The notes under the pieces were generated by a model. The model was not told the DNA's origin. It was given only the letters and a program-made list of their open reading frames with translations, and did no database searches. Below are positions 29,131 to 33,437 of a stretch of DNA of 64,000 bases, piece by piece. A program made the translations under genes and the position numbers. Position 1 is the first letter of the stretch, and the number at the start of each line of letters is the position of its first letter. Origin of the DNA: an uncultured delta proteobacterium (GTDB lineage Bacteria > Desulfobacterota > Binatia > DP-6); the NCBI GenBank assembly GCA_963815115.1, contig CAWFFN010000005.1, positions 992,001-1,056,000 of the forward strand. Direction: 5' to 3'.

Positions 29131-29395
29131 GCGGCCGGCCCTTTTTCCTGCCGCGGCGGCTTCGCCGCCGGTGCGAGGGGGCGAGCGCCCGGCGAGAAGC
29201 CCGCCGGCTCGACATCAACGGTCAAGCTTGTGTCCGTGGATGCTGACCTGACATCCAGCGTCACCCCTAGCGGCATCGGCAACAAAGCCCTAGCAAAAAT
29301 TGATTGACAGACACGCTTCCCATCAGGTACGGCGCACGCACACATCGACATGCCGACAGATGCGGTCGCCGGGGGCGCCGCGAAAGGGAGGGACC

Positions 29396-32008
29396 ATGAG
29401 GGAGCGACGAGATGCGTGCACACGCCCGGGCGGGCTGCACGTGCCAGGGCGCCTTGCCGTAGCCGTCCTCGCGGCAGCGCTGGTCTTCACCGGACCGGCC
29501 CGCCGGGCCTTTGCCGGGACCGGCTGCCTGATCAACGAGAATCCGCCGGCGCACGGCGCCACGGCCACGGGCAGCATCGTGCCGATGGTGGGCTTCACGT
29601 GCCCGCCGGCCGGGCCGGTGGACGGCGGCGGTCACTTCTACGCCGGCACGTTCAACATCACCGTCGACGGCGATCCCACCCTGGGCTACTGCATCGACAT
29701 CACGCACCCCATCAGCAACGGGCAGTGCGAGCCGCAGGCGCAGTTTCCCGATCTTCCCTGCGAAGCGGTGTGGATCCTGAACAACTACTACCCCAAGGTC
29801 GCCAGCCCGCCGGGAGCCCTGGCGAGCCCGGGGGACGAGGCCGCCGCGACCCAGATCGCGATCTGGCACTTCACCGATTGCTTCACCGCCGAGCCGGACA
29901 CCGACTCGGACATCCTCGACCGCGCCGACCAGATCATCGCCGACGCGGCCAACCATCACAGCTGCGTGGCGCCGACGGCGCCCCAGAACATCACCATCAC
30001 GCCGCCGAGCGCGACCAACGTCCTGCCGCAGGACCCGCAGCACTGCGCCACCGCCCACGTCGCGGACACGAACGGCGACCCCGTCGCCGGGATCGAAGTG
30101 GTCGTCACGGTCGCCAACGGTCCCTCGGGCTCGGTCGGGCCGATCACCGGGACGACGGACCAGAACGGCGACTTCCCCTTCTGCTACAGCAACGCGAACC
30201 TGCTTGCCGGCGGCCCGGACCACATCACGGCGACCGCGCACTACACCGTGTCGACGGGCATCGCGTTCAAGCAGCAGGGCATCCAGGGCATCGTGATCGC
30301 CGGGCAGGACGCCGACGCGGCCGCCACCGGCACGGCGGTCAAGAACTGGGTCACCAACCAGTGCGGCGACGGCAGCGTCAACCAGGTGACCGAGCAGTGT
30401 GACGACGGCAACCAGGTCAACGGGGACGGGTGCGACAACAACTGTACCCCCTCCACGTGCGGCAACGGCATCGTCGCCGGGAACGAGCAGTGTGACGACG
30501 GCAACACGATCGACGGCGACGGCTGCGATTCGAACTGCACGCCGACCGCATGCGGCAACGGCGTCGTCACCGGCATCGAGCAGTGCGACGACGGCAACCA
30601 GGTCGACGGCGACGGCTGCGACCACAACTGCCAGCCGACCGGGTGCGGCAACGGCGTCGTGACGCCCCCCGAGCAGTGCGACGACGGCAACGCCGTCGAG
30701 GGCGACGGCTGCGACACCAACTGCACCACCTCGGGCTGCGGGAACGGCATCGTCGCCGGGAACGAGCAGTGTGACGACGGCAACCAGATCAACGACGACG
30801 GGTGCGACAACGACTGCCGGCCGCCGCGCTGCGGCAACGGCATCGTCGACGCTTCGCACGGCGAGACCTGCGACGACGGGAACGCCGTCAACGGCGACGG
30901 CTGCGACTCGAACTGCACGCCGACGGGCTGTGGCAACGGCATCCCGACGCCGCCCGAGCAGTGTGACGACGGCAACCAGGTCAACAACGACGGCTGCGAC
31001 ACCAACTGCACCTTCCCGGGCTGCGGAAACCACATCGTGAACCCGCCGCTCGAGCAATGTGACGACGGTAATCACAACAACGACGATGGCTGCGAGAACG
31101 ACTGTACGCTGCCGAAGTGTGGCAACGGCATCGTCGATGCGTCGCACGGCGAGCAGTGCGACGACGGCAACCAGGTCAACGGCGACGGGTGCGACGACAA
31201 TTGCACCACGAGCGTCTGCGGCAACGGCATCGTCGCCGGCAGCGAGGAGTGCGACGACGGCAACCAGACCAACGGCGATGGCTGCGACACCAACTGCAAG
31301 ACCACCCGGTGCGGCAACGGCGTGGTCAGCGGGACCGAGCAGTGCGACGACGGCAACAACGCGAATGCGGATGGCTGCGAGGCCGACTGCACGCTGCCGC
31401 GGTGCGGCAACGGCGTCGTCGATCAGGCGCAGGGCGAGCAGTGCGACGACGGCAACACCGCCGACGGCGACGGCTGCTCACACGACTGCAAGCTCCAGGA
31501 GATCTGCACCGACCTGATCGACAACGACGGCGACGGGCTGGTCGACTGCGACGACGTGCTCGATTGTCACTGCCAGGTCTTCGGCAAGGACCCGGCATCG
31601 ATCGTGTTCGTCCCGAACAAGCCCGGTCTGGACAAGTTCAAGGTCCACGGGCGCATGACGCTGGCAAACGCCAGCGCGATGTTCTCTTCGAAGTTCGGCG
31701 TCCTGCTGACCAACGCCAACGGGACCATCTTCCGCGGCGTGCTCGACGCCGGACAGCTGGTGAAGAAGGGCAGCGGCGCGCTCTTCAAGAACAAGACCGC
31801 CAACCACACCGGCGGCCTCTACAAGGTCCAGATCAAGAGCAAGCTGGGCTACGTGAGGATCCAGATCCAGTCCTACTCCGATCTCGGCCTGGCGACGGTG
31901 CCGCTCATGGGCGTGCAGGTGCTCCTCGCCGGAGAGGAGGCCTACTACAAGGCCTCGTGGCAGAAGCGGCCGAACGGCTGGAGGCTCCAGCTCCCGCCGA
32001 ATTCCTAG
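29396..32008 (+). CDS. Secreted protein: thioester (TED/TQXA) domain, 12 Myxococcus-type Cys-rich repeats, basic C-terminal domain
   Basis: RBS GGGAGGG, signal peptide, YCID and TQIAIW motifs, CGNG..EQCDDGN..DGC..C repeats, DNDGDGLVDC motif. Confidence 0.82.
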   Translation: MRERRDACTRPGGLHVPGRLAVAVLAAALVFTGPARRAFAGTGCLINENPPAHGATATGSIVPMVGFTCPPAGPVDGGGHFYAGTFNITVDGDPTLGYCIDITHPISNGQCEPQAQFPDLPCEAVWILNNYYPKVASPPGALASPGDEAAATQIAIWHFTDCFTAEPDTDSDILDRADQIIADAANHHSCVAPTAPQNITITPPSATNVLPQDPQHCATAHVADTNGDPVAGIEVVVTVANGPSGSVGPITGTTDQNGDFPFCYSNANLLAGGPDHITATAHYTVSTGIAFKQQGIQGIVIAGQDADAAATGTAVKNWVTNQCGDGSVNQVTEQCDDGNQVNGDGCDNNCTPSTCGNGIVAGNEQCDDGNTIDGDGCDSNCTPTACGNGVVTGIEQCDDGNQVDGDGCDHNCQPTGCGNGVVTPPEQCDDGNAVEGDGCDTNCTTSGCGNGIVAGNEQCDDGNQINDDGCDNDCRPPRCGNGIVDASHGETCDDGNAVNGDGCDSNCTPTGCGNGIPTPPEQCDDGNQVNNDGCDTNCTFPGCGNHIVNPPLEQCDDGNHNNDDGCENDCTLPKCGNGIVDASHGEQCDDGNQVNGDGCDDNCTTSVCGNGIVAGSEECDDGNQTNGDGCDTNCKTTRCGNGVVSGTEQCDDGNNANADGCEADCTLPRCGNGVVDQAQGEQCDDGNTADGDGCSHDCKLQEICTDLIDNDGDGLVDCDDVLDCHCQVFGKDPASIVFVPNKPGLDKFKVHGRMTLANASAMFSSKFGVLLTNANGTIFRGVLDAGQLVKKGSGALFKNKTANHTGGLYKVQIKSKLGYVRIQIQSYSDLGLATVPLMGVQVLLAGEEAYYKASWQKRPNGWRLQLPPNS
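30362..31497 (+). repeat. 12 tandem Cys-rich repeats of about 31-33 aa (about 93-99 bp), DUF4215-like
   Basis: Counted from the translation; DNA unit tgcggcaacggc...gagcagtgcgacgacggcaac. Confidence 0.92.
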
Positions 32009-32124: not shown

Positions 32125-32520
32125 TCAGTCCTGCCGGCCGCGCAGCTCGATGAGCTCGATCTTGTAGCCGTTCGGATCTTCGATGAAGGCGATCGTCGAG
32201 CCGCCATGCTTCATCGGCCCGGGCTCACGCGTCACCTTCGCCCCGCGCGAGCGCAAGCCGTCGACCATCTCGTGGATGCCTTCCACGCCGAGGGCCACGT
32301 GGCCGTACGCGGTGCCGATCTCGTAGTGCTGCGTGTCCCAGTTGTGGGTGAACTCCAGGACGGTCTGCTCGCTCTCGGGGCCGTAGCCGACGAAGGCGAG
32401 GGTGAACCGCCCGGTCGGGTAGTCCTTCTTCCGGAGCAGCTTCATGCCGAGCACGTCGCAGTAGAAGCGCAGGGACTCGTCGAGGTCGTTCACGCGCAGC
32501 ATGGTGTGGAGCAGCCGCAT
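32125..32520 (-). CDS. gloA: Lactoylglutathione lyase (glyoxalase I)
   Basis: [43 protein letters not shown]. Confidence 0.95.
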
Positions 32521-32543
32521 GGAGGTCGGATATAGGCCGATCG

Positions 32544-33437
32544 ATGCCGAGGGTCGAGTCCCCGCGCGGCCCTGCACGGGCGGCGAGTCCGCGGGTCAGG
32601 CGGCGTCGGCCCGCGATCGCGGGCATCGCCCTGATCGCCCTGGCGATCGTGGGCGCCGCCTGCGAGCGTGCCGCCTCGGAACGGCGCGACGCGGGCGTCG
32701 CCGCGAGCGCGGGCTGCCGCGCGGGGAGCCTGCCGGCAGCGAACGGCGCGCGGCAGGATCTGGAGGGTCGCACCTACCTCGTCGACGCGCCGGCTGCGCC
32801 GGCCGACGATCCCCTGCCGCTGGTGCTTGCGTTCCACGGCTTCCGGAGCAGCCCCGACGATCTGCGCGCAGGAACCGGGCTGTCGCAGCTGGCCCGGACG
32901 GAACGCTTCATTGCCGTGTACCCCGAGGGCCACGACGGTGTGTCACTCCTGGGCACCACCGGGCGCGGCTGGGATTTGCGGCCCGAGCAGACGCTCGACC
33001 GGGACTTCGTTCGCGCGCTGCTCGATCGGCTGCAGGGCGAGCGCTGCATCGACCGGCGCCGCATCTTCGCCACCGGCATGTCGAACGGCGGATTCTTCTC
33101 GAGCCTGCTCGGCTGTCAGCTCGCCGACCGGCTCGCGGCCGTGGCGCCGGTGGCGGGGGCCCTGGACCTCGGTACCTGCCGCGCCGCGCGGCCGGTGCCG
33201 ATCCTCCTGCTGTACGGGAGCCGCGATCCCATCGTGGCGCCCGACATGGTCGCGGGCGCGGTCACCTGGTGGGCCGAGCACAACGCCTGCCGCTCATCGG
33301 CGCCGAGCGACGGTTGCACGCGCTGGAGCGGCTGCGCCGCGGACGTCGTCGCCTGCGAGGGCACGCAGGGACACGCCTGGCCCTACGACGCCAGCGAGCG
33401 CATCTGGCGGTTCTTCGCCTCGCAGGCGCGTCCCTGA
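32544..33437 (+). CDS. Lipoprotein alpha/beta hydrolase (PHB depolymerase/LpqC-like esterase)
   Basis: VGAAC lipobox, [19 protein letters not shown] nucleophile, D-P-I-V, GHAWP. Confidence 0.8.

Follow-up and report, generated by a model that had tools for sequence, protein, structure and literature searches.

A predicted class II thioester domain on a disulfide-rich stalk in an uncultured diderm bacterium of the Binatia

In the parts of the literature considered here, a paper dated October 2026 among them, thioester domains (TEDs) appear as an invention of Gram-positive bacteria that goes with sortase anchoring and the colonisation of hosts, and the locus described in this work raises the question of whether such a domain may also serve for covalent attachment in a bacterium with an outer membrane. 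The gene concerned (29396 to 32008, forward strand) lies within a 64,000-nucleotide stretch of DNA, hereafter the window, that covers positions 992,001 to 1,056,000 of the forward strand of contig CAWFFN010000005.1 (assembly GCA_963815115.1) of an uncultured delta proteobacterium assigned to the Binatia (Desulfobacterota; DP-6). It encodes an 870-amino-acid protein composed of a signal peptide, a TED, twelve DUF4215/myxo_disulf repeats, an acidic Cys-rich linker and a basic Cys-free domain, in this order. A preliminary description of the sequence had proposed a covalent adhesin displayed on a disulfide-rich stalk in an apparent diderm. As suggested by our comparative analysis, the head of the protein is recognised as a TED by standard family models and is assigned to class II by its predicted fold, and the gene product is probably, although far from certainly, a covalent adhesin that is exported by a diderm and does not depend on sortase.

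Motifs, conservation and predicted fold of the head

The features of the head are as follows.

29522 to 30355, forward strand: predicted class II TED, residues ~43-320 (Pfam TED, NCBIfam TQXA_dom, AF2, Foldseek and VIA-align)
29687 to 29698, forward strand: YCID, residues 98-101, a [YFL]C-hydrophobic-hydrophilic motif in which Cys99 is the proposed thioester cysteine
29849 to 29866, forward strand: TQIAIW, residues 152-157, a TQxx-hydrophobic-W helix motif lying inside model helix 103-119
29969 to 30256, forward strand: predicted Ig-like (Big_1-like) seven-stranded beta-sandwich insert, residues ~192-287 (model strands 154-243, invasin match, family profile)
30284 to 30286, forward strand: Gln297 in IQGIV (GIQGIV), the proposed thioester glutamine, kept in 54/54 aligned sequences

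The TED family of Pfam (PF08341) matched residues 98-185 with 46 bits (cut-off 22) and the NCBIfam model TQXA_dom (TIGR03934) scored 32.5 bits (cut-off 30.4); the profile search that the preliminary description had put forward as a check thus bears out its identification of a thioester domain. The gene is the sole TED match in the 6.89-Mb genome. In the consulted parts of the defining papers, the hallmarks of a TED are a beta-strand cysteine within a [YFL]C-hydrophobic-hydrophilic motif, a helix that bears TQxx-hydrophobic-W and lies next to the bond, a glutamine further along in a weak hydrophobic-Q-hydrophilic-hydrophobic-hydrophobic motif, and a fold made up of a beta-barrel and a three-helix subdomain (Walden et al. 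2015, PMC4450167; Miller et al. 2018, PMC6194298). YCID, TQIAIW and the glutamine of GIQGIV were found exactly at the positions given for them beforehand (29687-29698, 29849 and 30284, respectively).

Relatives of the head were obtained from a HMMER scan with residues 43-345 of 1.84 billion cluster representatives, which returned 525 sequences at E <= 0.001 and 166 at E <= 1e-10. The window protein was aligned with 53 relatives at 24-55% identity, picked for head coverage and alignable length, and in this alignment Cys99, Trp157, Gly288 and Gln297 alone are invariant, with a mean column identity of 17%. Cys99 is kept in 54/54 sequences, the tyrosine of YCID in 52/54, Gln153 in 53/54 and Trp157 in 54/54, and position 152 is occupied by valine in 46/54 sequences and by threonine solely in the window protein. 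The second and third positions after Gln297 are hydrophobic in 54 and 52 of the 54 sequences. Competing glutamines of the head outside the TQ motif are present in 37/54 (Gln114), 18/54 (Gln197), 3/54 (Gln294) and 1/54 (Gln293). Because Gln297 is kept throughout, as opposed to 1/54 and 3/54 for the nearby Gln293 and Gln294, it is considered to be the right glutamine, in line with the partner proposed for the cysteine earlier. Judged from this alignment, conservation of the motifs is in excess of chance.

The mature head holds nine cysteines. Across the aligned heads the cysteine count is odd in 45/54 sequences, and the equivalent of Cys99 is the sole cysteine in 7/54. The remaining cysteines tend to come in couples: Cys44 and Cys111 occur together in 13 sequences and one without the other in 2 and 1, Cys122 compares with Cys189/190 as 25 with 17+8, and Cys217 and Cys263 are both present in 2 sequences and never alone. 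The odd counts, along with the paired co-occurrence of the other cysteines, argue against a disulfide at Cys99, and the pattern fits a cysteine that would be kept unpaired. As a separate observation, the residue directly before the thioester glutamine (isoleucine in the window protein) is cysteine in 13/54 relatives and the column near residue 107 is cysteine in 14/54, which may reflect a subfamily-specific disulfide beside the reactive site.

The AlphaFold 2 (AF2) model of the head, computed from the 54-sequence alignment, reached a predicted local distance difference test score (pLDDT) of 89.4 and a predicted template modelling score (pTM) of 0.83. Its order of elements is N-terminal strands, three helices of which the second carries TQIAIW, seven strands (model 154-243) and a long hairpin region with Gln297, and Cys99 ends model strand 51-57 (residues 93-99). 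The insert of ~95 residues lies between model helix 129-143 and the Gln-bearing segment. Class II TEDs are defined, in the part of the source available to us, by an inserted seven-stranded beta-sandwich of ~75 residues that follows helix 3 and precedes the Gln-bearing hairpin (PMC6194298). The five best rows of a Foldseek search against the PDB belonged to the three solved class II TEDs (6fwv, E 1e-9; 6fwy, 6e-9; 6fx6, 1e-4; probability 1.00), and the class I domain of Cpa ranked after the class II entries. VIA-align placed 6fwv_A first (Z 13.9, 242 residues, root-mean-square deviation (rmsd) 9.9 A, model 1-278 on chain 4-258), followed by 6fwy_A (Z 11.9, 153 residues, rmsd 3.4 A), 5a0g (Z 10.6) and 2xic and 6fx6 (Z 10.2-10.3), class I TEDs lying at Z 10.2-10.6. 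Because the model places an insert of seven strands behind helix 3 and is matched best by class II TEDs, the head is regarded as a class II TED by predicted fold, and the Ig-like insertion of class II type that had been suspected from the sequence recurs in the model.

The spacing between Cys99 and Gln297 is 198 residues. Bond spacings of four class II TEDs, as given in the consulted parts of PMC6194298 and other sources, are 195 in BaTIE (C71-Q266), 171 in SaTIE (C296-Q467), 204 in EfmTIE86 (C88-Q292) and 188 in TIEpLS20 (C68-Q256), so that the value of 198 falls within their range of 171-204; spacings of 129-153 are given for class I TEDs in the part of PMC4450167 that was available. The insert on its own was aligned by VIA-align with invasin 1cwv (Z 11.5, rmsd 2.2 A, 94 residues) and with macroglobulin domains (Z ~10-11), and the family profile matched structures of intimin (E 7e-9), invasin (5e-8) and a phage tail Ig-like domain (3e-9). 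The Big_1 family of Pfam scored 23.2 bits on residues 218-263, under its cut-off of 34.9.

Predicted export signal, proposed stalk, tail and the producing cell

The remaining parts of the protein are listed below.

29396 to 29515, forward strand: predicted signal peptide, residues 1-40 (hydropathy scan; Arg-rich start, hydrophobic 13-31, AFA from residue 38, then G41)
30362 to 31501, forward strand: twelve DUF4215 / myxo_disulf_rpt repeats, residues 323-702 (Pfam and NCBIfam), the proposed stalk
31502 to 31585, forward strand: acidic Cys-rich linker, ICTDLIDNDGDGLVDCDD..., residues 703-730 (pLDDT ~61; likeness to teneurin-4 and acid_disulf_rpt)
31586 to 32005, forward strand: basic Cys-free beta-sandwich (predicted), residues 731-870 (isoelectric point (pI) 10.2; AF2 pLDDT ~96)

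Residues 1-40 are read as a Sec signal peptide with a probable cleavage site after AFA. The hydropathy scan identified residues 13-31 as the sole hydrophobic segment of the 870 residues, and the signal peptide noted at first sight is thereby supported. A lipoprotein reading of AFAGTGC was ruled out, with glycine at position -3 and Cys44 kept in just 15/54 relatives. The 870-residue protein contains no LPXTG-like motif (LP.[TSA]G), in agreement with the lack of such an anchor reported before, and neither isopeptide nor ester (CnaB-type) domains of Pfam and NCBIfam matched at E <= 1. The Por_Secre_tail domain (TIGR04183), a sorting domain of the type IX secretion system (T9SS), likewise had no match in the TED protein at E <= 1. 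The pI is 4.2 for the head, 4.05 for the stalk and 10.2 for residues 731-870.

The twelve Cys-rich repeats that had been described in place of isopeptide domains were recovered as 12 stretches by both DUF4215 of Pfam (226 bits) and myxo_disulf_rpt of NCBIfam (316.7 bits). They start at residues 323, 355, 386, 417, 448, 479, 512, 543, 575, 608, 639 and 670, and each consists of 31-33 residues with 4 cysteines, residues 321-702 totalling 48 cysteines. Relatives with the same head and tail carry 0 (P0032), 1, 2, 5, 7-12 and up to 14 (P0022) repeats; as head and tail are constant while the middle varies, the repeats are read as a spacer. The DUF4215 repeat is a common building block in the source organism, whose genome has about twenty open frames with 52 repeat matches between them; a TED is carried by one of these frames alone. 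Two large DUF4215 frames are located ~60 kb upstream of the window start on the same contig (C5:957022-961053). The acidic linker that follows the stalk resembled a Cys-rich piece of teneurin-4 (7plp) in the family-profile search (E 0.0054), the NCBIfam model acid_disulf_rpt matched the same place in relatives under its cut-off, and by sequence the linker looks like a calcium-binding type motif.

The C-terminal domain, described earlier as basic and delimited here to residues 731-870, was modelled as a beta-sandwich of about ten strands. No family of Pfam or NCBIfam matched it, and Foldseek with the tail model against the PDB gave no match at E <= 0.001. VIA-align against 48,161 chains yielded a best Z of 8.0 (gp350 of Epstein-Barr virus) and a next value of 6.5, a range that is common for generic sandwiches. 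In the ESM Atlas the tail matched unnamed clusters only, the top one being mostly Binatota, and a word-based homologue search returned 4 other proteins, 3 of them TED proteins. A hidden Markov model (HMM) of the tail placed the domain at the extreme C-terminus of 19 proteins with the TED cysteine motif, the window protein included, many of which belonged to the training alignment of that HMM. Among the 43,998 frames of the source genome it found three weak further copies (E 3e-6, 2e-4 and 0.01) on other contigs (L086:2100-3593, forward; L087:998-2623, reverse; L088:998-2224, reverse), situated near the C-termini of frames after MopE-like Cys-rich repeats or thrombospondin-type-3-like acidic motifs. 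The three copies suggest that the tail might be a generic C-terminal module of exported Cys-rich proteins, and they are the only hint, a weak one, that it may act as a base or retention unit.

The source genome (6.89 Mb, 12 contigs) is 100% complete by marker genes. LpxC was found with 275.5 bits, along with three Omp85 matches and two GspD matches (520 and 482 bits) above cut-off, and sortase had no match in the genome. On account of LpxC, Omp85 and the two GspD matches the host is considered a diderm with lipopolysaccharide (LPS) genes and type II secretion, as its first appearance had indicated. The diderm setting is nevertheless less singular than the preliminary description implied, because every one of the closest TED relatives likewise comes from a diderm-type setting. 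A scan of one genome per species recovered 360 relatives among 472 pattern matches; the scan pattern is specific to this TED subfamily and the counts are therefore not an unbiased census. Among the best 80 relatives (79 loci), the closest 27 share 38-51% identity and all come from metagenome-assembled genomes, 12 labelled Candidatus Binatia and the others delta proteobacterium, Polyangiaceae, Thermodesulfobacteriota or otherwise. Most of the other 52 loci bear the labels Ignavibacteria, Melioribacteraceae, Chlorobiota or Bacteroidetes; one is labelled Chloroflexota.

Within the class the distribution of the family is patchy. Of the 151 sampled class genomes, 41 (own genome included) matched the head query at E <= 0.001. 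Strong matches across most of the head (E <= 1e-36) were obtained in 25 of the 150 other genomes, and a further 15 matched just the Ig-like or first-repeat end of the query. In the own family 8/17 genomes match, 5 of them strongly, and some genomes carry two or three copies. A word-based search added 15 more proteins with a related head, of which 12 carry TED and DUF4215 according to precomputed Pfam annotation, and some head relatives are named 'TQXA domain-containing protein' or 'cysteine-rich repeat protein' in the source annotations. An NCBIfam scan of 77 TED relatives, picked by motif and a length of <= 1300 residues out of 164, revealed myxo_disulf_rpt in 22, Por_Secre_tail in 15 and choice-of-anchor A in 12, and LPXTG models in 0/77.

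Several other TED proteins came to light alongside these. P0073-P0140 (loci L027-L080) are encoded in genomes labelled Ignavibacteria, Melioribacteraceae and Bacteroidota, some of which are cultured Melioribacter isolates. P0015, P0045, P0047, P0056, P0065 and P0119 are mostly short TED proteins (321-461 amino acids; P0015, 761) that share an ending composed of a P(T/S)AVTLSSF(S/A)A-like stretch, a hydrophobic segment and basic residues; it had no NCBIfam match and looks like a sorting signal. P0048 combines a TED head with a TolB-like beta-propeller (TolB propeller model, 190 bits, under cut-off), another architecture that is not Gram-positive.

The gene itself and its start site are defined by two features.

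29396 to 32008, forward strand: whole gene, 870 codons and stop
29385 to 29391, forward strand: AGGGAGG, Shine-Dalgarno-like, 4 bases 5' of the ATG (direct sequence reading)

The enclosing open reading frame (ORF) spans 29300 to 32008 on the forward strand with the ATG at 29396, and this start is likely correct because AGGGAGG precedes it. The gene is counted as real on the grounds of the Shine-Dalgarno-like element together with the strong full-length TED matches in 25/150 other sampled class genomes. It is surrounded by housekeeping genes. Those upstream code for topoisomerase IV-like subunits, FabF and an MFS transporter, the latter separated by 265 bases; those downstream code for glyoxalase I, a GH1 glycosidase, a B12-radical SAM enzyme and MetH. 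None of 6 window neighbours recurred at the 27 related loci, and flanking gene clusters, leaving aside frames overlapping the TED gene, were each common to at most 6 of these loci. The promoter scan found no promoter-like sites, and terminator-like sites were at chance level. Eight soil-metagenome DNA runs contained 0.06-0.28 of the sampled words of the gene, and no RNA runs were among those listed. Further downstream, an exported-looking ORF of 297 amino acids (32544 to 33437, forward strand) had no Pfam match at E <= 1e-5 and shares its first 34 bases with the start of the convergent glyoxalase I gene (32125 to 32577, reverse strand).

Proposed action and competing explanations

The architecture can be put together into the following sequence of events. 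Upon Sec export, folding would take place in the periplasm, whose oxidising conditions would let ~4 disulfides form in the head and 24 in the stalk. The unpaired Cys99 would attack the side-chain amide of Gln297 with release of ammonia, and the resulting internal thioester would be buried between the helical and barrel subdomains. The folded protein would then leave the cell, possibly via one of the two type II secretion systems, and the basic tail would retain it on the anionic surface or matrix of the producer while the stalk pushes the head outward. A nucleophile of the target, typically a lysine amine, would open the thioester and become linked to Gln297 by an isopeptide bond. Formation of the Cys99-Gln297 thioester and capture of a target amine are inferred by analogy with the established chemistry of TEDs; passage through the outer membrane, retention by the tail and the nature of the target are conjectural steps of this scheme.

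A number of observations weigh against such an adhesin, some touching the head and some the rest of the protein. The score of TQXA_dom exceeds its cut-off by just 2 bits, and the position after Gln297 in IQGIV is glycine where the papers place a hydrophilic residue, though those papers call the motif weak. A single-sequence search of solved structures was near chance, with 5dcq as the sole TED-like match (E 1.1), and the family profile matched solved TEDs weakly (4c0z, E 0.0073; 5dcq, 0.023; 6fwv, 0.18). Superposition of the whole domain on 6fwv and 6fwy was loose (template modelling score 0.33-0.39, rmsd ~10-11 A), which may be attributed to a different orientation of the two lobes or to stretching of the long alignments. 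The binomial p-value of 7e-7 for the parity of cysteine counts overstates the case, because related sequences were treated as independent. As to the other end of the protein, no anchor or sorting signal of known type was recognised by Pfam, NCBIfam and the motif and hydropathy scans, crossing of the outer membrane and retention at the cell are conjectural, and the role of the tail is a guess from its charge and position.

One competing explanation is a reversed polarity. The thioester head would then anchor the protein covalently, without sortase, by reacting with an amine that belongs to the producer itself, in its envelope or its matrix (peptidoglycan, lipid, polysaccharide or surface protein), and the C-terminal beta-sandwich would be the distal binder. 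The protein shows no recognised LPXTG, lipobox, transmembrane segment, T9SS or other sorting tail and the genome no sortase match, which would suit such an arrangement, and the conservation of head and tail around a stalk of variable length fits either polarity. However, the characterised TED proteins all have a distal head that reacts with foreign targets, as far as the consulted parts of PMC4450167 and PMC6194298 tell, and the remote copies of the tail end other Cys-rich exported proteins with different heads, which suits a base or retention module better even though these matches are weak (E 3e-6 to 0.01). We consider a reversed polarity unlikely.

Confinement to the periplasm seems still harder to sustain. 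On this account the Sec signal would be the only export signal, the outer membrane would never be crossed and the thioester would react with a periplasmic amine, e.g., in peptidoglycan stem peptides. Such a location agrees with the lack of an outer-membrane translocation or sorting signal recognised by Pfam and NCBIfam, and the many disulfides require the periplasm for folding, but twelve repeats and a stalk variation of 0-14 are hard to reconcile with its narrow space. Moreover, T9SS sorting domains on 15/77 scanned relatives of the same TED subfamily imply that those proteins are sent to the cell surface, and folded proteins could leave the cell through the two GspD secretins. A TED fold devoid of a working thioester, binding non-covalently and keeping its conserved cysteine and glutamine for structural reasons only, is just as improbable: chemical evidence for a diderm TED was absent from the literature found and an oxidising periplasm could trap a free cysteine, yet Cys99 and Gln297 are strictly invariant at 24-55% identity to the query while nearly all else varies, an unpaired cysteine appears to be maintained (odd counts in 45/54), and twelve out of twelve TEDs tested formed the bond according to the consulted part of PMC4450167.

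Beyond the exported covalent adhesin favoured here, a wider interpretation can be put forward tentatively, as possible rather than probable. TEDs might be a working covalent-attachment module of diderms, and the Binatia family might constitute a new class of sortase-independent adhesins that combines a class II TED, an adjustable DUF4215 stalk and a new basic beta-sandwich. The sandwich would be a so far overlooked module for surface retention or sorting that also occurs in other exported proteins rich in cysteine; most boldly, it is through the thioester that the protein would attach itself covalently to the producer's own envelope. A conserved TED family in uncultured soil diderms would extend thioester chemistry to environmental bacteria with an outer membrane. 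It would raise the questions of how a thioester cysteine survives in an oxidising periplasm beside ~30 disulfides and which non-host targets such harpoons may have. With a fixed head and tail and a stalk of 0-14 repeats, the family represents a natural experiment on reach, and its heads could join the toolbox of self-reactive protein ligation modules.

Comparison with known systems

The statement that TEDs occur 'exclusively in Gram-positive bacteria' was made of PSI-BLAST hits in the part of PMC4450167 consulted, and the available parts of PMC8092201 and PMC6194298 likewise imply a Gram-positive family. No published TED of a Gram-negative or diderm bacterium was found in the literature searched, which left aside subscription journals and supplements. 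At the same time the domain is not new to databases: standard models recognise the TED, and pipelines label relatives 'TQXA domain-containing'.

The closest characterised counterparts are the class II TEDs of Gram-positive TIE proteins (BaTIE 6FWV, EfmTIE86 6FWY, SaTIE 6FX6 and TIEpLS20). In these, as in the window protein, the TED is N-terminal after a signal peptide and shows YC(I/V)D, a TQxx-hydrophobic-W helix, a downstream invariant glutamine and a seven-stranded insert before the glutamine strand. In contrast to TIE proteins, the window protein comes from a diderm in which LPS genes are present and sortase had no match, and it lacks LPXTG; DUF4215 disulfide repeats take the place of CnaB-type isopeptide or ester domains in its stalk, and its tail is a basic beta-sandwich by prediction. 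The head further differs from Gram-positive class II TEDs by ~4 predicted disulfides and by an insert that is Big_1 (intimin/invasin)-like in sequence, and it shares just 11-15% sequence identity with solved TEDs. The window protein would act in the manner of a TIE adhesin, but as it lacks both the isopeptide/ester stalk and the LPXTG/sortase anchor it is a TED protein and not a TIE protein.

The T9SS-tailed TED proteins labelled Ignavibacteria, Melioribacteraceae and Bacteroidota belong to the same TED subfamily, with 30-40% head identity, an N-terminal head and diderm hosts. Unlike the window protein, they have AAAVQxAIW in place of TQxxxW and are associated with Por_Secre_tail (15/77), choice-of-anchor A (12/77), DUF11 and SdrD-like repeats, and they possess neither DUF4215 repeats nor a C-terminal domain of the window type. 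Literature on T9SS-tailed diderm TED proteins was not found by our search, and they are known as database proteins.

Proteins with DUF4215 / myxo_disulf_rpt repeats (PF13948, TIGR02232) are characterised by tandem repeats of ~31-38 residues with 4 cysteines and an acidic core. The twelve repeats of the stalk are canonical in this respect, each with 4 cysteines and a CDDGN..GDGC core, whereas the other DUF4215 proteins of the own genome carry no TED. Twelve DUF4215 repeats are also mentioned for a diatom adhesive-trail protein in the consulted part of a preprint (10.1101/2023.03.06.531300).

Complement C3 and alpha-2-macroglobulin use a Cys-Gln thioester as a covalent 'harpoon' as well, and macroglobulin Ig-like domains resemble the insert (Z ~10-11), but the fold of their thioester domain is unrelated. 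TED and complement-type thioesters are treated as independent inventions in the part of PMC4450167 available, and a thioester of the alpha-2-macroglobulin type was ruled out for the window protein, for which Pfam gave no A2M family match at E <= 1. Set against these systems, the protein has an unusual architecture and a tail of no assigned family, yet it represents no new principle.

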